NCBI GenBank assembly: GCA_039024555.1
Contig: JBCCQQ010000020.1
Location: 1-64,000, forward strand
Reading direction: 5' to 3'
Origin: Cyanobacteria bacterium P01_D01_bin.156
GTDB lineage: Bacteria; Cyanobacteriota; Cyanobacteriia; Phormidesmidales; Phormidesmidaceae
Length of the DNA: 64,000 nt
Of this stretch, positions 1 through 14,094 are shown one piece after another (position 1 is the stretch's first letter; the number at the start of each line of letters is the position of its first letter). The position numbers and the translations under genes are program-made. The notes below the pieces were generated by a model, which made no database searches, was not told the origin of the DNA, and worked only from the letters and a program-made list of their open reading frames with translations.

Positions 1-221
1 ACAGCCAAATCAACTATCCATCCATAGTAATATCCATCGTCAACTGTTCTACCTACACCAACCAATTCATCACTGATATAAGCAAAGCGTTTAAAGGAGC
101 TTCTTTCGAATGAAAGTTTAACTTGTTCCGAAAGCCTTTCTCCCCATCCGACAGCTTTGAATATATCGGACACTTCCTTCCAGTTTATAGTTTCTATTGA
201 AGTTGTATATCTGACATGCAT
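1..221 (-). CDS. GNAT family N-acetyltransferase (5' part; runs off the window), candidate first cassette gene
   Basis: Not in the ORF track. Manual translation from ATG at 221 gives MHVRYTTSIETINWKEVSDIFKAVGWGERLSEQVKLSFERSSFKRFAYISDELVGVGRTVDDGYYYGWIVDLA, a typical GNAT N-terminus. The ATG lies 16 nt downstream of GTTAGCT. Confidence 0.8.
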   Translation of the reverse strand, partial: MHVRYTTSIETINWKEVSDIFKAVGWGERLSEQVKLSFERSSFKRFAYISDELVGVGRTVDDGYYYGWIVDLA

Positions 222-237
222 GTCACTACTTTTTGCT

Positions 238-355
238 AGCTAACTCTTATTAGATCGACAGTTTCAGCATATCTGCGTCGAACAGGGTGACTATACTGAT
301 TGTTCGCAGTATATCTCGCTAAGTTGGGTAGATAGGCGGCGAACTGTCCCTATAG
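238..355 (-). repeat. Phased-dyad repeat element copy A ending in an attI-like simple site
   Basis: Minus strand reads ATCTAAT-AAGA-GTTAGCT (255-238). Upstream dyads include the perfect TATACTG-N8-CAGTATA (292-313); right half-sites are at 265, 307 and 348. Motifs are shared with 5302-5466 and 11664-11826. Confidence 0.6.
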
Positions 356-643
356 TACGCTTGCAATCCCCACCGCCGCTAGCCGATCGCGAATATCATC
401 TGCCGTGGCAAAGTCTCGCTGTTGTCAAGTCGTCTGGCGCTGCTGGATCCGGTCAGCGATCGCCGCTCTAAATCTATTTTGAGCCATCGCCACAGCCGTG
501 CAAGACATATCGATGGCCGTAACGTTGGGTGATTTCTCAGTTTTGAACAAGCGATCAATCAGGTCGCCTCCACCCAAGCCAATTTCCTGAATGTGTTGCT
601 CCGCCTACGCATTCAGAGCCTTGAGGGCGATGACATTCATCAT
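350..643 (-). pseudogene. Chimeric pseudogene: class I SAM methyltransferase N-terminal fragment fused in frame to a CysS-like C-terminal fragment
   Basis: One frame reads MMNVIALKALNA*AEQHIQEIGLGGGDLIDRLFKTEKSPNVTAIDMSCTAVAMAQNRFRAAIA then DRIQQRQTT*QQRDFATADDIRDRLAAVGIA. Stops at 605-607 and 425-427. The switch falls at GCGATCGC 456-463. Confidence 0.65.
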
Positions 644-669
644 GGTATGACAACACGCTGTCTATCTGG

Positions 670-1056
670 CTAATTTCGATCCTCAACGATATCGAGAATC
701 AATCCTGCGGGATCCCTGACCATAAAGTGAGTCTGCTGCCAGGGTTCCTCCTTAAGCGCAAAGTGAATATCAAGTTTCCGTTTCTGTGCCTCGACGTAGG
801 TATCTTTGGCATCCGCGACTTCAAACGACAGAACCATACCATCAGTGACTGCTTTGGCATGCAAAAATGGCGGTTGCGTTGCCAAGTTAGGCAACATGAA
901 TCCCAATTGAGCACCATTGTTTGTATTAACCAAATGCAAATAAAAGTCTGGATCGAAAAATGCTACTTGAAATCCGAAATTTTCTGTGTAGAAGGTCTGT
1001 TGGGCCTCTAGATTTTCACAGACATACAGCGGGTACATCAATTTGAACTGAATCAT
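670..1056 (-). CDS. VOC/glyoxalase-bleomycin resistance family protein
   Basis: FYTENFGF and EEPWQQTHFMVRDPAGLILDIVE motifs. Confidence 0.85.
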   Translation of the reverse strand: MIQFKLMYPLYVCENLEAQQTFYTENFGFQVAFFDPDFYLHLVNTNNGAQLGFMLPNLATQPPFLHAKAVTDGMVLSFEVADAKDTYVEAQKRKLDIHFALKEEPWQQTHFMVRDPAGLILDIVEDRN

Positions 1057-1100
1057 GTCACACCTCTATTGCTTGAAGATGTGATTACTTTAGCCAGGGC

Positions 1101-1919
1101 CTACGGCAATAAATTGTAGATTTCGGTCATGCGTCTGATTTGCCCTGGTGTCAACCCAGTCAGATTGCGTATCTCCTTGATTCTATGGGCTTCATCGTAA
1201 AATCCATCGTCCATTGCCAATGTATCGGGATTGAGTAACTCTCGCAGCGAGGCTTGTAAACGCATGATGCGTTGAATTTTCTTCGGGCCAAATCCGAATA
1301 AGGACTGCATGATGCGTCTGAATTGTCTGTCACTCAGGCCAAAATGTCTGGCAATCGCATTGACACCGACTTCACCAACAGATGTTTGCATGGCAGTCAA
1401 AACATTGCTGATATCCAATGTCTTAATTGGAGCGCGATCGTTGGGTGATTGCGCCAAGCGATCGGTTAGAAGTTGGTCTAGTTTGTTCGCTAATTCATTG
1501 TGGTGTTGCAGATTTTGAATTTCGCTTACTAGTTTTTGAATGCCGAGACTTTGGGTTGTGTGTTCACCTGGAGATAAGGACTGTATGAACGATAAATCTA
1601 GGCCAAAAAATGTTGGCATCTGCTCAGTTCTAAAACTGACTCCGATATAGCTGATAGGGCCTGTCAGTGGAATGCTGAATTTTTCAGGAGTGGGTAAATA
1701 CACAATTGAAAATGCATTGATGACGGGTGACATCACCAAGTCGGCTGCATTGTCTGGAATCACTTACAGTAAGGTCTCGCCATCCGCTACATCAAGCCAC
1801 CAATAGTAATGAATAAAGGTGCTTAAACGCTGCGATGGCAACGCACAGTGGCAGGTTAATTTGTCCGTACCAAGTTGATAGAGTTGTAGGGGAAGTGGTT
1901 TTTGGCTATCGATAAACAT
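1101..1919 (-). pseudogene. AraC-family regulator (DUF6597-like N-domain plus HTH) interrupted by an in-frame stop
   Basis: The frame opens at ATG 1919 (MFIDSQKP...FIHYYWWLDVADGETLL*VIPDN) with TAA at 1764-1766. C-terminal AraC HTH: GLSDRQFRR...GFYDEAHRIKEIRNLTGLTP. Confidence 0.8.
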
Positions 1920-1997
1920 GCCATTTACCTTACAACAGTTAACAATATCGATCTATTTGCTGATTGGCTAAAGAGATTGATGTTGTTTGAGGAGTAT

Positions 1998-2399
1998 CTA
2001 ATCAGGTGCCATCGCCGCAGATGGCTGCAGCGGTCTTTCATCGTAGGAAACCTCAGTATCCCCAGTGATGAACAGTAGCCTCGCTGCGGGTCTGGAAATT
2101 TGCCGATGCCACACCCCTTTCGGTACGACACACATGTCTCCGGCCGAGACGATACTCGTTTCTGGATCTGTCTCGTGCCATAGCGTGACTTCAACCGAAC
2201 CATCTAGCACGTACAGGAGTTCGTCTTGCGGATGGCATTCCCAAGGGGTCAGACCGGAAAAGTGGGTCACGCCAGCCATGAGTCCTTCGAAGTGGTCGAG
2301 GATGCGCAGTGCAGCTATCGCGTCCGCTTCAGTGGTGGCGATGGAAAGCTCCAGAAGAGGCAATTCACTTGCTACAGTTTTTGGATTGTGGATTTTCAT
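1998..2399 (-). CDS. Cupin domain protein
   Basis: WECHPQDELLYVLDG and GDMCVVPKGVWHR cupin motifs. Confidence 0.85.
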   Translation of the reverse strand: MKIHNPKTVASELPLLELSIATTEADAIAALRILDHFEGLMAGVTHFSGLTPWECHPQDELLYVLDGSVEVTLWHETDPETSIVSAGDMCVVPKGVWHRQISRPAARLLFITGDTEVSYDERPLQPSAAMAPD

Positions 2400-2444
2400 G
2401 TCTTCCTCTCTTATGACTTATTAGTTGATCAGGACTGCCTGGGT

Positions 2445-2987
2445 TCACCGCTTGGGTAACGTGATGTTGGTTTGCGCTGCAATGGTCTGGTAGAACTGAG
2501 CGATGTCACGGCGCGATCGCAAGTGATAAACCTGTTTTGTCGCCTTTGCGTGCTCCACATAGTCCCGGTATCTGGGGGTCAGTTTGGTATGGCACAGCCA
2601 GACGGTGTAATAACTGTTCAGTGTGCCTCGCAACAGTGGGCTGTTCTCCGGCCAACCAGCAGGCGGCACCCAGCCCCCTTTCAGAAATCGTTTCGTGACC
2701 CACCAGTAGTGCCGCAACACGGGCATATCGATATACACCAAAGTATCGGCCACTTCTAGTCGTTCCCATACGGTATCCAGGGAACCAAAACCATCCATAA
2801 CCCACTGGTTTTGTTGCAGCAGCGCAGTGTGGGCCGCTTTGAACTCGGCATGGGGCACTTCGTCACCACCGATTTTGTATTTCATAGCATCGAGCGGCAT
2901 CCAGGGTAGGCCGGTCATATCCGCTAGACGTTGGCTGAGGGTAGATTTTCCCCCACCCGCATTACCAAAGACAGCCACTTTTTTCAT
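2445..2987 (-). CDS. P-loop kinase, adenylate kinase/FlaR-like
   Basis: GNAGGGKST Walker A and WVMDG motif. Confidence 0.8.
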   Translation of the reverse strand: MKKVAVFGNAGGGKSTLSQRLADMTGLPWMPLDAMKYKIGGDEVPHAEFKAAHTALLQQNQWVMDGFGSLDTVWERLEVADTLVYIDMPVLRHYWWVTKRFLKGGWVPPAGWPENSPLLRGTLNSYYTVWLCHTKLTPRYRDYVEHAKATKQVYHLRSRRDIAQFYQTIAAQTNITLPKR

Positions 2988-3017
2988 GGGCCTTTCCTCC
3001 CTATATCTATTTTTCTT

Positions 3018-3350
3018 CTAATGCTCCTGAGATTGAGCACCCAACCAGTTCTCCTGAAACTCTCCTGACAGCACAAACTTCGGAAATGTATAGAACTGCT
3101 CGGTGTACAGGCGAGTTGCAAAATTCCAGCCACTGCGGAAGGGTTCTGGAGCCTGCACTTCTAGATCATGTCCTTTGCGCTGCAACCCCAGTGATGCCAC
3201 GGCTACGCCAACGCACGTCAAAGCTGGCAAGGGCTTGCGAGAAGAGATTGCGACGACCAATCCTAAATGAGCCAGGATAAACAAGGGAACGGCAACCAAA
3301 TGGAGTAGCAAATTAGTCCGGTGGGCATGGACTTGAGAATAGGGTTTCAT
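3018..3350 (-). CDS. Mpo1/DUF962-like small membrane protein
   Basis: YSQVHAHRTNLLLHLVAVP, QRKGHDLE and EQF motifs; hydrophobic segments. Confidence 0.65.
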   Translation of the reverse strand: MKPYSQVHAHRTNLLLHLVAVPLFILAHLGLVVAISSRKPLPALTCVGVAVASLGLQRKGHDLEVQAPEPFRSGWNFATRLYTEQFYTFPKFVLSGEFQENWLGAQSQEH

Positions 3351-3365
3351 AGCTCATTCCTTCTA

Positions 3366-3419
3366 TTATGTTAACACTGTCAACATAAGGTTAGCGTAGC
3401 AAGTTAACACTGTCAACTT
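3366..3419. promoter_or_regulatory. Tandem palindromic operators, probably bound by the adjacent TetR
   Basis: TTATGTTAACACTGTCAACATAA (3366-3388) and AAGTTAACACTGTCAACTT (3401-3419): two near-perfect palindromes sharing a 15-bp core, between divergent genes. Confidence 0.75.
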
Positions 3420-3459
3420 CTTGTGATACGGTGTTTGTATTTAGTAAGCCACTTCACCA

Positions 3460-4086
3460 ATGCCTAAAGCGCGCTCCAGGGCTACGTATCACCATGGCGA
3501 TTTACGACAAGCGTTGATTGAAGCAGCATTGGCAATCATTGTGGAAGACCGGGATGCTGCTAATGTCTCTCTGCGAGCAGTTGCCCGTCGAGTGGGGGTT
3601 TCCCAAACGGCTCCCTATCGCCACTTTGCTGACAAGGACGCTTTGTTAGCGGCTGTGGCGGAAGAGGGGTTTCAGCGGTTGGTGAAGGCTTTAGACGCCG
3701 ATGCTGGCTCCGGCCCACTCGCAAGGTTGCAGTCCAGTGGGGTAGCCTATGTAAAATTTGCGATCGCCCATCCTGCCCACTACCGGGTGATGTTTAGCAC
3801 CTTCCGAATAGAGCAAGGGAATGATTCATCACTGAACGCAGCGGCGGGGGAGGCGTTTGCCGTGATGGTGGATGCCATCTCCGCAGGGCAAGCAATGGGA
3901 GCAATACAACCTGGCCACCCTCGCCAGTTAGCCTGGATCACCTGGTCATTAGTTCACGGGTTGGCGCTTCTACTGATCGATCGTCAACTGCCAGTCGTCG
4001 ATGAGCAGGACATGTTATCCCTAGTCACCCTGGCAACCCAGAGTTTGGTTTATGGTCTTCAGAAACCAAACTCTGGGTTGCATTAA
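3460..4086 (+). CDS. TetR/AcrR family regulator (WHG-type C-domain)
   Basis: YHHGDLRQALI...SLRAVARRVGVSQTAPYRHF HTH; WSLVHG. Confidence 0.92.
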   Translation: MPKARSRATYHHGDLRQALIEAALAIIVEDRDAANVSLRAVARRVGVSQTAPYRHFADKDALLAAVAEEGFQRLVKALDADAGSGPLARLQSSGVAYVKFAIAHPAHYRVMFSTFRIEQGNDSSLNAAAGEAFAVMVDAISAGQAMGAIQPGHPRQLAWITWSLVHGLALLLIDRQLPVVDEQDMLSLVTLATQSLVYGLQKPNSGLH

Positions 4087-4153
4087 AAATAGTCTGTTGT
4101 TTGAGATGTTTTGCCCTAAAAGTTCTAGCGGTTGGTGAAACGTTATCTCTGCT

Positions 4154-4237
4154 GGCTAACGTGAAGCTGAGCGGCGGTCGGGATTTTAGCATCACTACCT
4201 AATTTCACGCTCCGTCCGCTCCTGCGCAGGGTTAGAC
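4154..4237 (-). mobile_element. attC-like integron cassette recombination site (best conserved copy)
   Basis: Minus strand GTCTAAC-cctgcgcaggagcggacgg...ccgccgctcagcttcac-GTTAGCC: R'' matches RYYYAAC, GAGCGG/CCGCTC inner stem, R' begins GTT; 84 bp. Confidence 0.75.
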
Positions 4238-4332
4238 AGCTTTCAGATGGTAAAAGTCCGCTAAAGCCATACACCTGCCTCAGCTTATAAATTTGTGCTC
4301 ACTTAGCATATTGTAACCAAAGCGAATTGGGG

Positions 4333-4767
4333 TTATTTACTCTGAACAGGGAAATAATCTGTATGGATACTATCGACAAAATGCGTTTGAGGGTCGAGAT
4401 TCTTTTCTTCTACTTCATATTGGTAGAGCATATACTTTGCTTTCTTTAGAAAAACTGTTTCTTTTTTCTTCACTTTTTCCCCGTCAACCTCGTATATGCC
4501 TGAATACTCATACCGACATATCCACCCTGTATTATCTATATAGTCTTCCTTGAGTTCACATGCCCCCGTCCCTTGTCCTTTTACAGTGAGAGCACTCATT
4601 GCTTGTTGAACTTCTCCTAGAAGCATATATTTTCTGATGCTTTTGGATAATGGTGGAGAGGGTTGATATTCGGGTGTATTGTATGCATTTATTCCAGTAA
4701 AAATATAAATTGATGCAAATGTTACACCGAAAATTGTGAGTACTATCTTGTAAAACGTAGAACTCAT
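4333..4767 (-). CDS. Hypothetical membrane-anchored protein (cassette-borne)
   Basis: 144-aa AT-rich ORF with an N-terminal TM helix, between GTTAGAC 5302-5308 and the attC at 4154-4237. Confidence 0.6.
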   Translation of the reverse strand: MSSTFYKIVLTIFGVTFASIYIFTGINAYNTPEYQPSPPLSKSIRKYMLLGEVQQAMSALTVKGQGTGACELKEDYIDNTGWICRYEYSGIYEVDGEKVKKKETVFLKKAKYMLYQYEVEEKNLDPQTHFVDSIHTDYFPVQSK

Positions 4768-4821
4768 AGTTCTTGTATGAGATGTTGAATGTGACTATCT
4801 TGTATTTCTGTAGATTTTTTG

Positions 4822-5100
4822 TCACCCAAGAGTTGAAAACTTGATTTCAGGCCAATCTTGAAACATTAATCCTTCTCGTTGTGCTTTAGCTATTATTTGT
4901 GATTGCACATTGAAAATCTCATCAAAAGTAGCCTTCTTCAGCGCTCTAGCAGCTTTAGTTACATCTGCCTCCTCTGGGATATGCTTCACATTGTTGAGAG
5001 TATAAGATCCTTTCGGAATCTTCAGAGCCTCTTCTATTGAGTGTTCGGGATGCCAAATCTCTAGATTCATACCTTGATTTTTGAAAATTATGTATGGCAC
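4822..5100 (-). CDS. Hypothetical protein, possibly the 3' remnant of a longer gene (cassette-borne)
   Basis: 92-aa ORF with GTG start; the upstream 200 bp has stop-interrupted frames. Confidence 0.4.
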   Translation of the reverse strand: MPYIIFKNQGMNLEIWHPEHSIEEALKIPKGSYTLNNVKHIPEEADVTKAARALKKATFDEIFNVQSQIIAKAQREGLMFQDWPEIKFSTLG

Positions 5101-5301
5101 ACGGAAAAGTCTTCGCTCGAAAGCCTAGCACTTCTACAGAAGCAGAAATTAACTTTTCTATCTTTCTCTAATATCTTGTATCAAGAATCGTTAAGACGCT
5201 CTTGTGGGTTCTGGATGGAAAATTAATAAAATTTCAAACATGAAGGTCTCTGTTCATTCATAAGCAGTGTGATGCAGTATTTTTTAGACTGGTTTATGGC
5301 G

Positions 5302-5466
5302 GTCTAACTACTTATTAGATCTACTTTTTCAGTCTATCTCCCCTTATCGGCATACTATACTGCAAACTTTCAGTCTATCCATCCAAATTGGCGTACTATA
5401 CTGCAAACTGTCCATATAGCATGCTCATATTAGGTAGATATATGGACAGTTTCAGTCTATCTCCCA
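5302..5466 (-). repeat. Phased-dyad repeat element copy B ending in an attI-like simple site
   Basis: Minus strand ATCTAAT-AAGTA-GTTAGAC (5320-5302). CAGTCTATC at 5330, 5371 and 5453; CTATACTGCAAACT at 5355 and 5396 (41-bp period). Perfect 14-bp inverted repeat at 5405-5418/5439-5452. Confidence 0.7.
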
Positions 5467-5476
5467 TCCAAGAGGA

Positions 5477-5933
5477 TTAAAAAGTAGAGTCTCGTTTATG
5501 AGCAAGCTGAGCTACAAATGCTTGATACATATCTGTTGTAATACTCTGTTGAACTTGAGTAAGCACAGTAGCTAAGTCACTTTTCAAAAGAGCATCTACC
5601 TGTAAATCCAATCCAGGAAATACCTTACTCCGAATAATCTCTTGTCCATCAGACAACAGCAGTACATAATCACCATCCTCTAACGAATACCAACTAATTT
5701 TCTTCTCAGCTACCTGCCAAACAACATACTCCTTTATCCCATTCCAGCGATAAACCGTTTTCTTCTCATACAAATCATAGGCCGCACTACTAGCTGCAAT
5801 TTCAACAATTAGCTCTGGAACCCCTTCCACATAGTCATCATCACTAATACGCGACTGCCCACCATAGGCTTCATAAATCCGCAGTAACGCATCTGGCTGT
5901 GGCTCATTATCTAGATCCAACCGTACTGTTGTG
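5477..5933 (-). pseudogene. 5'-truncated Uma2 (DUF820) endonuclease-fold gene, paralogue of 11828-12535
   Basis: Highly similar to the C-terminal ~150 aa of the intact copy (EPQPDALLRI, PELIVEIAASS); homology ends abruptly at ~5933. Confidence 0.85.
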
Positions 5934-6024
5934 CGTTAGAAAAGTAGCTCTCTGGCTGGTGGTCTGTTCTAGTTGTCTAGAATCTGTCTTGCCGTGTGGT
6001 CTAACTTATTATGTATTAAAGTAA

Positions 6025-6405
6025 CTATGGCTCACATTTTAGCAAAACAGTCTCTGAAAATTGTTGTTGTAATTCTGTTAGCGTTTCAGTGCTGGGAGCC
6101 TGACCAAAGGGATTACCCAGCTCAGCGGGAGTGGGAATTGTTGTCAGAATGGTTTGATCAATATCGGTTACCACGACGACCTGAGAAATCTTACGCTGAT
6201 TCGCCTGACTTTTTTGGTGCAGTTCAGCATAGGGCTGAACCACGGCGGTCTGCCACTGGGCGGGAGGACAATAACTTTGATCAATAATTACTGTTACCTC
6301 CGGTACCTGCACAGCGTAGCGTAAACCCAGGCCCAGGCCACCAAAGGCTAACCAGCCTAAACCTAGGGTACTTATCAAGCGCTTTGTCGGATTTTGTGGA
6401 GCCAT
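6025..6405 (-). CDS. Hypothetical membrane-anchored protein with a degenerate vWA-like domain
   Basis: TM helix followed by VTVIIDQSYC; translationally coupled to the upstream vWA gene. Confidence 0.65.
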   Translation of the reverse strand: MAPQNPTKRLISTLGLGWLAFGGLGLGLRYAVQVPEVTVIIDQSYCPPAQWQTAVVQPYAELHQKSQANQRKISQVVVVTDIDQTILTTIPTPAELGNPFGQAPSTETLTELQQQFSETVLLKCEP

Positions 6406-8153
6406 TACAGATTTACCTGGAATAAGTCCTTAAACAGGGTTTGCACATTTTCGGGATTGCCTTGCTTTACCGTTGATTCCCGCAAACTGGCAATGGCTTG
6501 GAGTTCCGATTCATTCACATTACCGTAGGCAATGGGATAGAAACGCACATCGCTGTATTGCATAATGTCTTTCACATCACGGAAAAGATTCCCTTGATTC
6601 ACCTCGCCATCGGAGAGTAATAACAGATAGAACCGACCATTGGGATCACTGGCGCGTTTTTCCATTAGATCCGCCAGAGCTACCATCACACCATCGTACA
6701 TAGCCGTTCCTCCATCGGCCTGGAGTTGATCAATGGCCGCCAACAGTTTTTTCTGCTGCAGTTCATCATAAGGTGTGAGTTCCAAACGGCGCACAGGCTG
6801 ATCGGCAAAGGTAACCAGACCCACCTGATTGCCCTGGTTAATTTGCTGACTGGCAATACGCAAACCTGCTTGTACCGCCTGTAGAGGTTCTCCATCCATG
6901 GAGCCGCTAGTGTCAATCACCATTTCCAGGTAAACGGTACGACCGCTATCTTTATTAATTTTCCAACTTGATTGTGCTGCTAAGAGAGTCTCTCCATCTG
7001 GGATGGGAGGATGGGACGCCTTCAGATAATCGGTACGTACAAACCCTTGAGCATTGGCTAGCTTTACCATGTCGGGAGATTGGGCAAAGGTGGCAAATTT
7101 TTGTAGGGCGGCAGCGATTTCTGGGTTGTTCCAGCCAAAGCCCACCAGTGGGTTGTTATGGGGAATGCCAAAGGGAATAAACTCGGTGGACTCAAACCCA
7201 GCTACTTGTTTAAGGGCCAGGTAGTTTTGATACTCCAGAGGAAATGCCTGTAGTTTGGTTTGGTCCCTGAGAAAGAGTTCTTGCAGCTCTAAGGTGGTGG
7301 GTGTAGTAATGAGTACCTGGGATTGAAACTGATCAAAGACTGAAGTTACTTGGGGCGTTTGCAGTTCGGCTTTGGTTAAAGTCTCTCCATCCTTTTGGTG
7401 ACCAGCTGCCCGCCAATAAAGGGTATATAGCAAGTTCAGCGCCGTCGAACTTTTGTAAGGGTTAGGGTAAGCGACACTGACCTGCCCCGCTGCGATCGCA
7501 TTGAGCAAACTATCAAAGGTCACATCACTATTGCCCTGAAGCTGCTGGTATACGTCGCCAGGGACCACCCATCCCGCAGTATTGGCCACCAGGCGCTCCG
7601 CCACAGGTGTGGTCTGAATTCCCTGACTCTGGATCATGGATACCCACAAATCATTAGAGGGACTGTAACCTGCCGGTTGGGCTACCCCTGCCCCCAGTAA
7701 GCGGGCGGCGGTTCCCGAAGCGATTTTACGGACACCAACCTGAATAACTTTTCCAGAACTACTCTTTTCTTGCCGCTGGTTAAAGGCATCGGCAACCTCA
7801 ACCAGCCATCGTTCATTTTGCCGATCAATATTGGCCTTTTCTGAAGAGCTATAGATTTCTAGATAAACCTGATCGGCTCTAGGTGAGGCTCCGTAGAGCG
7901 GGAAATCGTCAATGTTGGGTAGGGGTTCTGCAATTTGATCGACCGTGTAGCGACTGGCCAGTTCGTCGGAGACTAAATTGCTAGCCACATTGATTTTGGG
8001 CAGTACCTTCTTATTAAGGGCAGACTGGGCGGTTTCTAAGGAGGTGACTTGGGTTTGACAGCCTCCTAAACCCAGCCCCAGGGTAACTAGCAACCCTAAT
8101 ACAACGCTCAACAGTTGACGATAGGTGCGGTTCGGAATAAGTCTTTTAAGCAT
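6405..8153 (-). CDS. Lipoprotein with substrate-binding-like domain and C-terminal vWA domain
   Basis: Lipobox-like LGGC; MIDAS motif IDTSGSM...GGTAMYD...LLSDG. Confidence 0.85.
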   Translation of the reverse strand: MLKRLIPNRTYRQLLSVVLGLLVTLGLGLGGCQTQVTSLETAQSALNKKVLPKINVASNLVSDELASRYTVDQIAEPLPNIDDFPLYGASPRADQVYLEIYSSSEKANIDRQNERWLVEVADAFNQRQEKSSSGKVIQVGVRKIASGTAARLLGAGVAQPAGYSPSNDLWVSMIQSQGIQTTPVAERLVANTAGWVVPGDVYQQLQGNSDVTFDSLLNAIAAGQVSVAYPNPYKSSTALNLLYTLYWRAAGHQKDGETLTKAELQTPQVTSVFDQFQSQVLITTPTTLELQELFLRDQTKLQAFPLEYQNYLALKQVAGFESTEFIPFGIPHNNPLVGFGWNNPEIAAALQKFATFAQSPDMVKLANAQGFVRTDYLKASHPPIPDGETLLAAQSSWKINKDSGRTVYLEMVIDTSGSMDGEPLQAVQAGLRIASQQINQGNQVGLVTFADQPVRRLELTPYDELQQKKLLAAIDQLQADGGTAMYDGVMVALADLMEKRASDPNGRFYLLLLSDGEVNQGNLFRDVKDIMQYSDVRFYPIAYGNVNESELQAIASLRESTVKQGNPENVQTLFKDLFQVNL

Positions 8154-8242
8154 CGAGATTATAAGCGGGCTAAACAGTTCTGAGGGGTAGCTGCAGTATG
8201 GTCTTGGATAAAGCCCCTGATTGAGGCTATGCGTTGCACAGA

Positions 8243-8875
8243 CTAGGTTTCTAAAATCTCTTTGTTTGCTGCGATCAAGATTTCTAAACGTTGGGGTAAG
8301 GTGGTATCCCCCTGGGAGAGGCTAGCCAGGGCCACCTGGTCTTGCAGTTGCTGGAGCTGCTGGTGGGTTTGCTGCATGCGATCGCAACTTTTCTGCAGTT
8401 GCTTTTTTGCCATTTGTTGATAGGTGGGGGTTTGAATCTGGGCCTGAACCTGGAGACCATCGGCCACCTGCTGCGCTAAATCTACGACGGTATATAGGGC
8501 TTCTAGTAATTCTGTGTGGAGGGTGGGTTCGCGATCGCAAATACGAACAGCAAACGTTTGTGACTGTAATGCCCAATCTTTAACGGGTTGCCAGGTGCGA
8601 TCATTACCACGAGCTACCTGAGCCTGAATGGCGTCAATACGCTTTTGAAAGCTAACTGGGTTCAGTAAATCGCTGTGGTCATTGCTCTTCAGAGATGACG
8701 TTTGGTAGCCCTTTACCCAACTACTGGCCATAACTGCGGCGACTACACCGCCCCCGACCCAGGTTACAGGTCGGTTACCAGCCAAGGCAATCAGTAGACC
8801 AAAGCCAAATGCTATCCCCAAAAGTAAACCATAGGTCTGAGGTTGTCGTCCTAAGGCCGACCAGTTAATTGGCAT
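8243..8875 (-). CDS. Hypothetical 2-TM coiled-coil protein, first gene of the vWA operon
   Basis: Likely ATG 8875 (MPINWSAL); two hydrophobic helices then a Gln-rich helical region. Confidence 0.7.
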   Translation of the reverse strand: MPINWSALGRQPQTYGLLLGIAFGFGLLIALAGNRPVTWVGGGVVAAVMASSWVKGYQTSSLKSNDHSDLLNPVSFQKRIDAIQAQVARGNDRTWQPVKDWALQSQTFAVRICDREPTLHTELLEALYTVVDLAQQVADGLQVQAQIQTPTYQQMAKKQLQKSCDRMQQTHQQLQQLQDQVALASLSQGDTTLPQRLEILIAANKEILET

Positions 8876-9121
8876 AGGGATTGCAGCTCCATGTACTTTG
8901 CAAACAAACGCGGTAGTCAAGCTGTACTCAATATGAACGTTCCAATGGTAATAGAAGTCGTAACGAATCAAGCATCAGAGGTAATAAAAGGAAAATTACT
9001 TTTCGTCTTGATTTATCGGAACACCTCCATTAGCCAGCGCCTGTTGACAGTCCTTGCAAAATACACATGGTACGACAAACAAGAACAACCATTTTGTCAT
9101 CGTCTGCGATTCTGTTTAGAT

Positions 9122-9211
9122 GTATAAAAACCAAAGTCACCGGACCGTAATGTGTGGCTTTTAATTGGAAATAGCAGGCGAACACATCTCCGATGCATTG
9201 TGTTGTTATGT
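9122..9211 (-). mobile_element. Degenerate attC-like site
   Basis: Minus strand ACATAAC-aacacaatgcatcggag...cggtccggtgactttggtt-TTTATAC. The TAA stop of the phosphatase lies inside R''; the R' GTT is mutated to TTT. Confidence 0.6.
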
Positions 9212-9772
9212 TGACGATATCTCGTAATTAGTAAAGCCCCAATATTCTCTCGATGGTCTCTTTGAGCCTCTCCAGCCATTCTTTAGTAGCTCTTTTACAA
9301 TTAGGCGATTGAATATGCCATGACCTACGTACAGGATATGACCGTGCTCTTTTGACAGTTGCACTAATTTTCTCGATGCTTTTTCTGCTCTGAGCTTTGT
9401 ACTCCCATAGCTTTCAGCATTAGAAGAATAACCAAGAAACCATAAAATCCTGAATATTACAGCCCAGGCAAGAGGATGCAGATTGAGTGCAACATTATTT
9501 GGATAGGGCATTCCTGCCTCTGAAAACTGAGGACTTTTTAGTAAGATTTTGTTCTTCCCAATCTGTTCAGCAGACTCGATAGAGCGAGATAGATCACTGC
9601 ATACTATGAATTTGCAGTCTCGGGCTAACTTTTGAAGCTCTAATGCAGGCTTCGAGTGTTCTGCTAATGGGCTGGCATCATACGCTCGAATCCATTCACC
9701 CATTTTGGAAGCTGGAATTTTCGTTGTAGGTAATTCTCTCGGCTTACCGTGTCGAACTATCGTTATTTTCAA
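9206..9772 (-). CDS. Histidine phosphatase family protein (cassette-borne)
   Basis: IVRHGKP, CSDLSRSIESA and LYVGHG motifs. Confidence 0.88.
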   Translation of the reverse strand: MKITIVRHGKPRELPTTKIPASKMGEWIRAYDASPLAEHSKPALELQKLARDCKFIVCSDLSRSIESAEQIGKNKILLKSPQFSEAGMPYPNNVALNLHPLAWAVIFRILWFLGYSSNAESYGSTKLRAEKASRKLVQLSKEHGHILYVGHGIFNRLIVKELLKNGWRGSKRPSREYWGFTNYEISST

Positions 9773-9858
9773 AGTTACGCCTCAAATTAGCGGCGACATG
9801 TAACTTAAAAGTCAACATCCATAGTAGCCAATCGTCCGCTACATTTGAATTTTTATGT
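9772..9858 (-). mobile_element. Degenerate attC-like site
   Basis: Minus strand ACATAAA-aattcaaatgtagcggacg...gtcgccgctaatttgaggc-GTAACTT. Stem TCAAAT(G)TAGCGG/CCGCTAATTTGA with a single bulged base; both R boxes mutated. Confidence 0.6.
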
Positions 9859-9875
9859 AGTAAATTCCCTTTTTG

Positions 9876-11354
9876 CTAAAAAAGTTGCTTTAAGCCAGTA
9901 AGCATTTGTCGATAATTAAAGCAGTATTGTGCAAACGGATGGGAGAGGCTAGAGCCCTGTTTTATCCAGGTAAATATATCCCAACCTGACTCTACAAGAT
10001 CAGAAGCTGCGAAAACAAATTCTAGAGTATCAGTAAAAAATTGAACCTGATTAGAATGAACACTGTAATCAATTTTCGTACCTGATCCGTGGACATAGTA
10101 GTTCCGACAGTTAATAGCCTGATCTGTAACAAATTCAAGTTCTGGAAATCGATCGCCTACGACATCCGTAATCAGCTTGACTCGACTCTGAACCTTTCGT
10201 TTAAGTGATGGTTTTCCTATTCGACCTAAGGCGTTCAAGACGCTATCTCGCTCTGGACTAACAGGCAATTCCTTAAACAACTTACGTGTCTTTTGTTTGG
10301 CTTCAATTATATCAGGTGCTAGGGGAGTTGAAGAAGGATATGTAGACGAGGGAAGGATATCAAACATGTTAGCTGCGCCAACAATTCGGTCTATGGTGTA
10401 TCTATTTTGATGGGCAAAAGCTGTGGAAAATCTTGCCCTAGCACTTCTCCACTCGTCATTTCGTTCCAACCAATGCTTCAGAACATTGCTGAACTCATCC
10501 GGCTTAATTGCTGCTTGCAAGGGTAAATCAGCCGGATATGGCTTACGGGATCCATCATTGCGATTACGGTGTGGTGGCTCACACCAATACACGTCAAAAA
10601 GACTGAACTGTTCTTTTGTGTTCAAAGGCAAGAAGATCAGGTCAGAAATGTTCTGACATCTGCCTGCAATAACTTCTATAAACCTTAAAATATCAAGGAT
10701 GTTTCTGACTGATTCATCTATATCCTTCACAGAGTCAAACACTATGTTAATTTTGATCGTGTTGTTAATTTGTATACCCTTTGGTCCCGGCGACTGAAAT
10801 GAAGGGGCATGCGTCGCTGAAATTTTACCAAGGATAGTATCTGCTTCAAATATCTCATATTTGCCAGTGAAGTAAAAGAGACTAGGATGTTCTCCAAGCT
10901 CAATCTCTCTTCCCACTTTTGATGCCTTTCCCTCTAAGATATTCTTCAAATAAGACTTCGCATTTAATGCTAAGCCAAAAGCATCAAAATCATAGAATAT
11001 AGTCGCTGCATCATCAATACTGAAGCTGAGACTATGAATTATTTGGCATGAGGAGTGGATGTATTGATCACCAAAAATAACAAAGTGAGGAAAAATACTG
11101 ATTTTGTAACAGGGAGTTTCACCCTCTTTCACAAAATGTCTTGACCTTTCCATTTCAACACAGTTAATGAGTGATACTTTCTCCCCGTTAAAGAAAATTC
11201 CACAAATATCTGTACTTGTAATACTATTAACAGGCGATTCTGAATACAGCTCAAGAGCCGTTGCCGCTCCATCTAGAGATAGCTCGCCCTGCAATTTTAT
11301 ACCATTCATGAGCGTAAAGCACCCCGCCTTCTTAAAACCCTTGTACTTTTTCAT
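9876..11354 (-). CDS. ApeA-like protein (N-terminal domain plus HEPN RNase domain), putative anti-phage effector
   Basis: 492 aa, AT-rich; C-terminal R-x4-H motif (RNYYVH); beta-rich N-terminus consistent with ApeA-type architecture. Confidence 0.7.
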   Translation of the reverse strand: MKKYKGFKKAGCFTLMNGIKLQGELSLDGAATALELYSESPVNSITSTDICGIFFNGEKVSLINCVEMERSRHFVKEGETPCYKISIFPHFVIFGDQYIHSSCQIIHSLSFSIDDAATIFYDFDAFGLALNAKSYLKNILEGKASKVGREIELGEHPSLFYFTGKYEIFEADTILGKISATHAPSFQSPGPKGIQINNTIKINIVFDSVKDIDESVRNILDILRFIEVIAGRCQNISDLIFLPLNTKEQFSLFDVYWCEPPHRNRNDGSRKPYPADLPLQAAIKPDEFSNVLKHWLERNDEWRSARARFSTAFAHQNRYTIDRIVGAANMFDILPSSTYPSSTPLAPDIIEAKQKTRKLFKELPVSPERDSVLNALGRIGKPSLKRKVQSRVKLITDVVGDRFPELEFVTDQAINCRNYYVHGSGTKIDYSVHSNQVQFFTDTLEFVFAASDLVESGWDIFTWIKQGSSLSHPFAQYCFNYRQMLTGLKQLF

Positions 11355-11507
11355 TACTGGAGTGCTTTTCCCAATCTTAAATATTCATTGATTCTTTTAA
11401 AGAAGAAAGAATTTATCCTCACTAGAGATATTTAAGGACTCAAATACAAATTCTAGTCATTACTATTGAGTCGGTGCAAGACATACGGAAGATCACAGAC
11501 TACTGTG

Positions 11508-11596
11508 GCAGAAGCATTAAGCTGAGCCACAGACGCCGTCGAGTACAACGCCGTTGGACTAGCGGTCGTTTGTCGGTTCCAGCGAGATTGTTCTTC
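11508..11596 (-). mobile_element. Degenerate attC-like site
   Basis: Minus strand GAAGAAC-aatctcgctggaaccgac...gtctgtggctcagcttaatg-CTTCTGC; L-box-like GCTGGAACC/GGCTCAGC; R' G mutated to C. Confidence 0.55.
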
Positions 11597-11663
11597 CGTA
11601 GCTTTCGCGATTTTATCATATAGCACCAAACGTTTGTACTATTGCTACGATAAAACTATGGAC

Positions 11664-11826
11664 TAGATCTACTTTTTCGGTCTATCTCCCCTTATCAACA
11701 GACTATACTGCAAACTTCCAGTCTATCCATCTAGATTGATGCACTATACTACTGCAAATTGTCCGCATAGCATGATCTTACTGGGAAGATATATGGAAAC
11801 ATTCAGTCTATCTCCTAACCCAAATC
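11664..11826 (-). repeat. Phased-dyad repeat element copy C (GTT core missing)
   Basis: Colinear with 5316-5476 (TAGATCTACTTTTTC.GTCTATCTCCCCTTATC...CTATACTGCAAACT); diverges just where the GTT core would follow. Confidence 0.75.
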
Positions 11827-11827
11827 A

Positions 11828-12535
11828 TTAAAAACTTGATTGAGAGTCTTGTTTCTGATCAAGCTGAGCGACAAATGCTTGATGCTTATCTGTTGTAATA
11901 CTTCGCTGAACTTGGGTAAGAACAGTCGCTAAATCTCCTTTCAAAAGAGCTTCTACCGGTAGTTCTAATCCAGGAAATATCTTACTCTGAACAACCCCCT
12001 CATCATCAGGTAAAAGTAGTACGTAATCGCCATCTTTTAGCGAATACCAACTAATTTTATTCTCAGCCACCTGCCAAACAACATACTCCCTCACCCCATT
12101 ACGGCGATAAACCGTTTTCTTCTCATACAAATCATAGGCCGCACTACTAGCTGCAATCTCAACAATTAGTTCTGGAGCCCCTTCCACATAATCATCATCG
12201 CTAATACGCGACTGCCCACCACACGCTTCATCAATCCGCAGTAACGCATCTGGCTGTGGTTCATTATCCAAGTCCAACCGTACTGTGGTGTTATCAGCTA
12301 CCTCAGTCCCCGGCGTAAACGCTGCGTAGGCCGCCAGCCAACCCATAATTGCACTGTGAGGTTTTCCATGGCGTCGATATCTCAGCGCTGCAGGCACGTA
12401 AACCACTCCTTCAATCAGTTCTGCTTTCTTCAAATGAGGCATCGCCGCATAACGCCGCTCAAATTCTTGACGACTCAGATGATCGCCATTTTCTAAGGGC
12501 AGTGGTTTAACAGTGGCTACATTGGCTAAGGTCAT
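11828..12535 (-). CDS. Uma2 (DUF820) family endonuclease-fold protein
   Basis: LENGDHLSRQEFERRY, AELIEGVVY, EPQPD and PELIVEIAASS motifs. Confidence 0.92.
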   Translation of the reverse strand: MTLANVATVKPLPLENGDHLSRQEFERRYAAMPHLKKAELIEGVVYVPAALRYRRHGKPHSAIMGWLAAYAAFTPGTEVADNTTVRLDLDNEPQPDALLRIDEACGGQSRISDDDYVEGAPELIVEIAASSAAYDLYEKKTVYRRNGVREYVVWQVAENKISWYSLKDGDYVLLLPDDEGVVQSKIFPGLELPVEALLKGDLATVLTQVQRSITTDKHQAFVAQLDQKQDSQSSF

Positions 12536-12600
12536 TGGCTGAAAAACCTGGCTAACGTCTCATTCCAGAACGTCTGCGCTGATTCTAACGCATTAACTCT

Positions 12601-14094
12601 CTATGGCTGCTTTTGCTGATATTGTTCCTCAACAGACTGACGTACTTCAGTCTGTAATCTTTCCAACGCCGAATCACTCTTGGCATTATTCACAATGGTA
12701 CGCATCAAAGTCTTAATCCCCTGCGGTCCCCAAGAACATCCCTGCTCTAAATACACCCGAGCCGCCTGCCCCACTGCGTAGGTTCCATAGCCAGCCGCTG
12801 CTGCCTGGGCACCCATCGCCCCCGCATAGGCCGTTAATCCAGAAGTACCATCCACCAAACTCCACAGAGCCGCACCACTTTTACCAATGCCCAATAGCAA
12901 CGTACTGCCCAGCTCGCTCAACACCAGCGTCCCAGAGCTACGAACAATCGCCTGCCATAGCTTGCTAGCTTCAAAATTGGTCATGGGAAAACCATAGAGC
13001 TTTGCCAGGTTGCGAATCATCACCAGGTCTGACGTAACCCCACCGAGGATATCGAGAACTGCCACTGGGTTGAGTGCGATCGCAGCCGCCTTATACTTAG
13101 CAAACTGCAAAATAATCTCATCCGCCGCCACCTGGTTGAGCTCTGTTGTCGCCTTAGCCAGCTCCGTATCCACCCGATTTGCCTGATGCAGCGTATTCAG
13201 CGCCACCAGCGTCGGCCCTTCTGATTGGATTAGCTCAATCAATGCCGTTTGCAACGGCTCAATCTCCGATGGTAGCGTCTCCCAGTCTTCCGTAATGCGA
13301 CCATCGGGCCACTCTGTCCGCACCTGAATGGGCGCAGGTTCCGCCGCTACCAAAATCACCTCATCTACCAGAGGTAAATCTGTTTCAGGGACAGCAGAAG
13401 TCTCTTCCGTAGTATCGTCTTTCTCTTCTTGTTCTTTATTGAGCTGGGTCTGTAACCGCTGCAGGTTATCGTAAACCGCTTGTTTATCCGTATCTGGATA
13501 TAAATCTGTTTTGTTAAACACCAGCAGTAGCGGCTTGCGAGTCTCGTACAAAGTTTGCAAGGCTGTGTACTCAGTGCGGGTAATATCTCCAGCCACCACA
13601 AACAGAATTAAGTCTGCCTGCTGCGCCACATCTTGGGCCACCTGCCCCCGTTCTGCTCCTTCAATTTCATCGAGACCAGGGGTATCAATCAGTTCAATTT
13701 TTAGGGTAGAAGGTCCCTCTTCCGATTCCACAGCGGGTGTCCAATAAATAGACCGTGGCCACTGGGTCACGCCATTTAGGGGACCTGTTTCTAGAATTTT
13801 CTCCCCTACCAGGGCATTGAGCACCGCCGATTTACCACGACTCACCAGACCAAAAACCGCCACCCGTAGCAGGGTACTATCGAGCTTATTTAACAATGTG
13901 GTCAGCTGATCGATGCCAGACTTTACAGCCGCCTGACGCTTGAGTTCGTCAGCATTCGACCGGGTCAGCTCAAGCTGGGGAATGTAGCGATCAATGGTTT
14001 GTCGGAGACTTTCACGGGCCTGTTCTACCAGTGGGTAGGGGTTAGCCTCCACTGGGGCGTCGGTAACATCCTGCAAAATGGCTGGGTCTGTCAT
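12601..14094 (-). CDS. Era-like GTPase with DUF697 domain
   Basis: GLVSRGKS, DTPG and NKTD GTPase motifs; ALNPVAVLD DUF697 region. Confidence 0.88.
   Translation of the reverse strand: MTDPAILQDVTDAPVEANPYPLVEQARESLRQTIDRYIPQLELTRSNADELKRQAAVKSGIDQLTTLLNKLDSTLLRVAVFGLVSRGKSAVLNALVGEKILETGPLNGVTQWPRSIYWTPAVESEEGPSTLKIELIDTPGLDEIEGAERGQVAQDVAQQADLILFVVAGDITRTEYTALQTLYETRKPLLLVFNKTDLYPDTDKQAVYDNLQRLQTQLNKEQEEKDDTTEETSAVPETDLPLVDEVILVAAEPAPIQVRTEWPDGRITEDWETLPSEIEPLQTALIELIQSEGPTLVALNTLHQANRVDTELAKATTELNQVAADEIILQFAKYKAAAIALNPVAVLDILGGVTSDLVMIRNLAKLYGFPMTNFEASKLWQAIVRSSGTLVLSELGSTLLLGIGKSGAALWSLVDGTSGLTAYAGAMGAQAAAAGYGTYAVGQAARVYLEQGCSWGPQGIKTLMRTIVNNAKSDSALERLQTEVRQSVEEQYQQKQP

Follow-up and report, generated by a model that had tools for sequence, protein, structure and literature searches.

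Sequence evidence for an integron gene cassette joined to an attI platform that has no adjoining integrase gene in a cyanobacterial genome

Our results support the view that a two-ORF block near the start of the window (i.e., the whole 64,000-nt stretch of cyanobacterial DNA analysed here) is, as far as sequence comparison can tell, an integron gene cassette joined at G|TT to a genuine attI. The cassette is ordinary for an integron; the unusual part is its site, an attI platform next to which no intI gene is found. It is highly probable that the cassette is a product of IntI at a true attI, and, on balance, it would probably have arrived after the loss of the local intI, loaded by an integrase acting in trans.

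The cassette and its ends

4160..5307, minus strand: gene cassette, 1,148 bp from G to G, with two ORFs without annotation and a canonical attC
4822..5070, minus strand: ORF1, 82 aa, member of a small family of unknown function
4333..4767, minus strand: ORF2, 144 aa, with a hydrophobic N-terminus
4154..4237, minus strand: attC, 84 nt, with R'' at 4237-4231, an L''/L' stem with extrahelical bases, and R' at 4160-4154

The cassette starts with GTTAGACCGC (5308-5299, minus strand), and the R'' of its attC (4237-4231) lies within GCTGTCTAAC (4240-4231, minus strand). That is, a (G)TTRRRY start is combined here with an attC that carries both R'' (RYYYAAC) and R' (4160-4154, minus strand), which is how a cassette is recognized. 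The motif positions of the preliminary description, and its match between the start and the complement of R'' (7/7 in the core, 9/10 overall), were reproduced from the sequence, and the cassette of about 1.15 kb with two unknown ORFs that it proposed corresponds to the 1,148 bp and the ORFs of 82 and 144 aa listed above. GC content is lower in the cassette (37%; 500-nt bins 4501-5500), and its first 24 nt (5307-5284) form a small inverted repeat of 8 pairs.

The attC, whose crossover position is after G 4160, shows the L''/L' pairing and the extrahelical bases of a bottom-strand hairpin. In the integrated form, the 90-nt attC region gives a single-stem fold on its bottom strand (z = -3.98 vs. 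-2.43 for the top strand; 300 shuffles each), and the computed fold of the reconstructed circle junction, which had been proposed as a check, was also better for the bottom strand (z = -3.18 vs. top -2.86; 300 shuffles each). An attC covariance model assigned 57.8 bits to this attC, a sequence that was among the 15 used for training. In the corresponding 15-site alignment, 88.4% of cells were paired and two-sided changes occurred in 14/22 pairs, with 0/500 shuffles as high, figures that are inflated by seeds picked by a folding filter and by a structure supplied by the analyst. Four other contigs of the same genome carry related attC sites.

The complementarity of the two ends had been taken as the signature of an integrated circular cassette, which holds for cassettes as a class, but alone it is weak evidence at one locus (about 15% by chance), because the downstream R' pairs with the same R'' (9/10 overall, 6/7 in the core) and 8/55 other first cassettes match the complement of R'' at 9/10 or better. 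The same starting 7-mer is present in 9/55 first cassettes at related attI sites, the studied cassette counted. For cassettes taken together, the signature is genuine: among the 25 first cassettes whose attC was scored, the start agrees with the cassette's own R'' at all four variable positions in 11 cases vs. 2.3 expected, and the downstream R' shows such agreement in 4/25. None of 100,000 permutations reached 11/25, the relatives being non-independent samples; the comparison omitted attC matches below 24 bits or more than 2.5 kb away, as well as one duplicate (G024:C1b; G and L numbers are our labels for genomes and loci, and C numbers for contigs).

Homologues of ORF1 were P0003 (74%) and one protein in G071 (53%), and the region in common begins at the Met of ORF1. 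The G071 homologue (L237) is located outside any detected array, is flanked by direct repeats of about 26 nt and has Uma2-like genes nearby. The N-terminus of ORF2, judged by eye, may be a signal or a membrane anchor. A search for ORF2 relatives among 5.8 billion proteins returned itself only, and one partial match (E 8e-6) lies within a 2,389-aa protein. Neither ORF matched Pfam, NCBIfam or PADLOC, their atlas matches were all under 0.9, and their predicted structures were unusable (pLDDT 42 and 46). The cassette DNA was not found in 400 other genomes of the class apart from a single partial match to ORF1, a metagenome scan with ORF1 gave no match, and neither did an Rfam search of the window.

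The attI platform

5306..5470, minus strand: attI platform without adjoining intI, called 'type A' in this analysis, 88% identical to an intI-adjacent attI
5302..5321, minus strand: attI simple site, with L box 5321-5314, a 5-nt spacer and R box 5308-5302

The preliminary description had placed the insertion at an 'attI-like core'. The attI is real, and its extent was understated: what precedes the cassette is a full platform of about 165 bp without its intI. Inverted 9-nt boxes begin at 5461, 5445, 5420, 5403, 5379, 5362 and 5338, with a period of about 40 bp, and are followed by the simple site, where the crossover G|TT falls at 5308/5307. These seven further boxes may bind IntI, judging from their likeness to the core boxes. 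Over 161 nt, the platform shares 88% identity with the attI next to the intact integrase in G032:C36 (the neighbour gene scores 476 bits on TIGR02249); this homology to an intI-adjacent attI, together with the inverted arrangement of the L and R boxes, marks the site as a true attI. Its score on the type-A profile, of which it is a training member, was 163.7 bits. A search for sigma-70-like promoters in the platform gave one weak match (5381-5354), i.e., 1 vs. 4.1 by chance.

Positions 5465-5305 match 24/36 genomes of the family and 0/24 genomes from other families, and the exact core pattern occurs in 12 cyanobacterial named records (Leptolyngbya, Leptolyngbyaceae and unclassified) and on one short contig whose bin bears the title Gammaproteobacteria. 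Homology to relatives upstream of the cassette ends at the GTT, a left junction of the kind found in 57/68 platform matches that reach the core, while the DNA downstream of the cassette begins at the same position in G015 and G088. The boundaries thus coincide with the GTT positions, and the proposal that IntI integrated the cassette is sustained by the G|TT junction to the platform and by these flank comparisons. Insertion of the platform itself by crossover at its leftmost box was unsupported, because repeat-like sequence, and often also spacer or intI stubs, reach further left. No intI or intI remnant was found in the 1.3-1.45 kb searched upstream of the platform at this locus; the upstream position, where intI adjoins attI in a complete integron, is occupied by Uma2.

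An empty site or a circle had also been suggested as something to look for. No joint of 5308 with 4160 was found in contigs of four public runs over positions 1-12,800; contigs drop rare forms and therefore the missing joint shows nothing on absence. Run X1, which is probably the source sample and thus non-independent, contains a single contig that matches 3931-5339 exactly, with a depth (17.9) similar to that of its neighbours. The exact empty site was not found in relatives, the Uma2-platform junction being unseen in 150 genomes of the family; in G013, Uma2 is followed by other genes.

Neighbourhood in the window

5477..5932, minus strand: 5'-truncated gene for Uma2 (PF05685), immediately upstream of the platform
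11654..11818, minus strand: second type-A platform, with a degenerate L box, which follows a full Uma2 copy and heads a different array
242..361, minus strand: third platform, 5'-shortened, variant A', behind a cysS 3' fragment
362..4159: downstream block (TetR, Mpo1-like, kinase-like, cupin, AraC and glyoxalase genes), which begins at the R' of the attC

Three platforms are present in the first 12 kb of the window. The truncated Uma2 gene is 87% identical to the full copy at 12535-11828, behind which the second platform heads an array (11656-9140, minus strand) composed of a short first cassette without an ORF, an ApeA-HEPN gene (attC 9858-9773), which likely has an anti-phage function, and a histidine-phosphatase gene; the first cassette of this array is 86.5% identical over 141 nt to the first cassette of G021. 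The third platform heads a cassette that is interrupted by the contig end. The downstream block is 95.6% identical over 4,096 nt, third platform included, to G088, which belongs to another genus; in G088 and G015, it lies behind a different attC or an attC remnant.

Between a vWA operon and the truncated Uma2 gene, a 70-nt piece (6002-5933, minus strand) has a cassette-like 7-mer start and an R''-like end without any further attC, and may be the joint of a duplicated Uma2-attI module. GTTAGCC before the full Uma2 copy was considered as a cassette start and rejected, since it is not conserved in G013. The genes that directly follow Uma2 in G013 were found on G000:C65:1-2430 (also L170), after a cupin gene that bears an attC-like half site, and the island probably runs from Uma2 past the contig start into C65.

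Platforms and integrases across genomes

Platforms without intI predominate in this group. The type-A profile gave 82 placed matches in 37 genomes, which are fetched loci rather than a census and include three sampled intact donors: 3 matches adjoin a full-length intI (in one case with an internal stop), 14 adjoin a protein-level intI remnant and 65 adjoin neither, and 62 of these 65 have at least 1 kb of upstream sequence. Every stage of intI decay was seen among the remnants at other loci, which therefore point to deletion of intI in place.

In the host genome, 13 platforms have a recognisable core and fall into four sequence types; three more are partial. Two of the 13 are beside an intI (intact on C49, frameshifted on C102), and 13/20 attC matches, from a search that scored 150 of 887 candidates, lie no more than 6 kb downstream of a platform. 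A type-A integrase was not found in this genome, a draft that is 99% complete; the one intact IntI found in it (C49) shares 62.5% identity with the type-A (G032) enzyme and has a different attI type, and the integrase copies on C92 and C102 are broken and show about 92% identity to a third type. In G034 (99% complete), at least 5 platforms and 45 attC matches were found but no intI above the cut-off, and platforms therefore persist without any enzyme. Identity was 86% at box positions vs. 79% at stub and non-box positions (Fisher p = 0.11), a weak sign of selection on the platform boxes.

Cassette loading after integrase loss

Circular cassettes are integrated by IntI-mediated attC x attI recombination at G|TT, and the gain or precise loss of a first cassette requires an integrase. 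The cysS locus is informative in this respect. Relatives carry an integron downstream of cysS, with intI convergent on cysS, and in 10 genomes of two genera the cysS stop is joined to an intI stub of about 26 codons with a 3-nt microhomology. The same junction is carried by G117, of a third genus (the junction pattern matched 10/13 cysS loci and missed G117, G019b and G016, the junctions of which are visible nonetheless). The simplest reading would be one ancestral deletion. The first cassettes behind this junction differ from G|TT on (0/45 pairs share a start, with one weak internal 47-nt match), and the GTT is mutated at the cysS platform of G002. A similar divergence at the GTT, behind a common flank without intI, was seen in the orthologous pairs G010/G008 (90%) and G163/G161 (94%), and the two Uma2-platform copies of the window hold different first cassettes as well. 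Where a platform had no protein-level intI match, its first cassette had perfect ends in 8/18 cases. Different first cassettes behind one deletion, together with the requirement for an integrase, imply that an integrase acted in trans, the other possibility being that homologous exchange brought in arrays from intact integrons outside the sample; some of the integrase-less platforms of this group thus appear to have kept acquiring cassettes.

At the studied locus, an intI between Uma2 and the platform would have been deleted, as the staged remnants elsewhere suggest, with the platform and its simple site left intact. The platform would have stayed usable, an integrase encoded elsewhere, or present for a time, loading and unloading cassettes in trans, and IntI would have integrated the circular cassette by attC x attI recombination at G|TT 5308/5307. 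Reloading need have happened at only one of the two Uma2 copies, whichever it was; therefore, the studied cassette may predate the loss of intI.

Alternatively, the cassette might have been integrated beside an intI that was deleted later, with the array static ever since. We view such a history as rather unlikely, yet several observations fit it: the host genome has no cognate integrase, the platforms of G034 have no intact intI, every stage of intI decay is present, the conservation of the boxes is not significant, and G000 and G088 share the same first cassette (98%) at the third platform. However, a static array cannot explain the different first cassettes behind one deletion in 10 genomes or the divergence in the G010/G008 and G163/G161 pairs, and here it could account for no more than one of the two Uma2 copies. 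An explanation without IntI at this site is that DNA taken up from a relative underwent homologous recombination, within either Uma2 or the 165-bp platform, and brought the cassette along, which the stacked 3' fragments of upstream genes (Uma2; cysS in 17/20 regions that were selected largely for this feature), the 4.1-kb platform-bearing block that is 95.6% identical between two genera, and the replacement of attI types by each other at cysS would all favor. Exchange of this kind relocates G|TT junctions but cannot create them, and, at their right ends, the cysS platforms cluster with integrase-less platforms and not with the sampled intact ones (in 10/11 cases the right 57 nt is nearer to a group member than to any of the three intact-intI platforms, the 11th being mis-anchored). 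Hence, we consider it improbable for the studied cassette.

Integration at a secondary site (attG), or a GTT match that arose by chance, is the reading that the chance rate of the end match (about 15%) would leave room for, and attG insertion is documented in the available portion of 10.1101/2022.09.11.507474; nevertheless, according to the same portion, attG sites have a GWT consensus only, while the 161 nt upstream of the cassette are 88% identical to an intI-adjacent attI, which makes this reading very improbable. Accordingly, the reading that we prefer for the junction itself is integration by IntI at a true attI.

A wider, and speculative, version of the loading-in-trans reading is that these filamentous cyanobacteria run a distributed integron, in which a dozen or more integrase-less platforms of several types would be live landing sites, served in trans even by a non-cognate integrase (about 62% identical), and in which platforms would reach new loci as cargo in blocks that start at an attC crossover. 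We consider this broader proposal unlikely as it stands. The 4.1-kb platform block that starts at an attC crossover, together with short attI ends joined at G|TT, indicates that attI sequence can also travel as cargo. In addition, 17/20 fetched cysS regions, chosen largely for this feature, hold at least two cysS 3' ends; the stacked ends (L216-L233) are spaced at 1-9 kb, and an intI or attI often follows them; the cysS locus has different attI types in different genomes. Such stacked 3' fragments of Uma2 and cysS point to repeated homology-anchored uptake, and the routes of platform spread are mostly inferred from patterns of this kind. The HIP1 palindrome served as the motif in a comparison of cysS breakpoints; breakage of the cysS fragments at HIP1 was rejected as a rule, the breakpoints varying from residue 156 to 391.

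Relation to known integron systems

The studied cassette resembles a class 1 cassette in its GTTRRRY start, RYYYAAC R'', bottom-strand attC hairpin, G|TT crossover and inverted L box 5 nt before R. In the available part of PMC12901181, the class 1 attI1 comprises the L and R boxes plus DR1 and DR2 within 65 bp; the platform here differs in its length of about 165 bp and in having seven further boxes in inverted pairs vs. two direct repeats. Also unlike a class 1 integron, there is no adjoining intI, and one genome has many platforms, of four sequence types. Unusual delta-attI-type cassettes, as presented in the same part of that source, are comparable in that attI pieces travel within arrays (L051, L054), but here a normal attC ends the studied cassette and whole platforms, not short pieces, are dispersed.

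With one or few attC sites and no integrase nearby, the locus would count as a SALIN or a small CALIN under the definitions in the available parts of PMC4889954 and 10.1101/2022.09.11.507474. The origins proposed there for CALINs and SALINs are intI loss, rearrangement or attG insertion, and, in these same parts, IntegronFinder matches only class 1-3 attI, and exactly. Unlike CALINs and SALINs as described, a true attI heads the array here; standard annotation is blind to non-clinical attI sites. In the Xanthomonas ilvD integron, strains with a common intI deletion usually keep identical arrays, and CALIN cassettes are mobilisable in trans (available part of 10.1101/2025.06.18.660453). The cyanobacterial case is similar in being sedentary, beside a housekeeping gene (cysS in relatives) and with shared intI deletions, and differs in that 10 genomes with one deletion hold different first cassettes, a contrast that is not like for like because the time depth is far greater here (about 79% identity at neutral positions).

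A search of titles and abstract starts, with most subscription journals outside its scope, returned no description of multiple integrase-less attI sites, and cassette uptake at an integrase-less attI is the part without a published description in the literature so searched. If integrase-less platforms do keep acquiring cassettes, loss of intI does not end integron activity and gene capture extends over many loci; and if the distributed arrangement outlined above is true, many SALINs and small CALINs would be active attI-headed arrays rather than fossils or off-target insertions. The shared cysS deletion represents a natural experiment on cassette loading after intI loss.

Additional observations on related integrons

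In the complete genome G024, the integrons L022 (359 kb) and L144 (3.54 Mb) on C1 are 84% identical on their intI sides and 100% identical over 400 nt in their first cassettes; one intI of this pair carries an internal stop. Type-B integrons at L051 and L054 contain, joined at a G|TT, the last 30 nt or so of a type-C attI, which start at an accessory box. In several genomes with different attI types (L043, L053, L056 and L188), one structured-looking sequence recurs behind the attI crossover, and would be a widespread cassette or, perhaps, an intron end. At L038, L039, L044 and L052, palindromes just upstream of intI, in the stretch that separates its start from the platform, resemble the cyanobacterial LexA box, and are absent from the platform of the window. 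Finally, four near-full type-D platform matches in G021, which lie away from its single intact intI, share their start position and three of them have near-equal scores, which suggests that they were recently copied.
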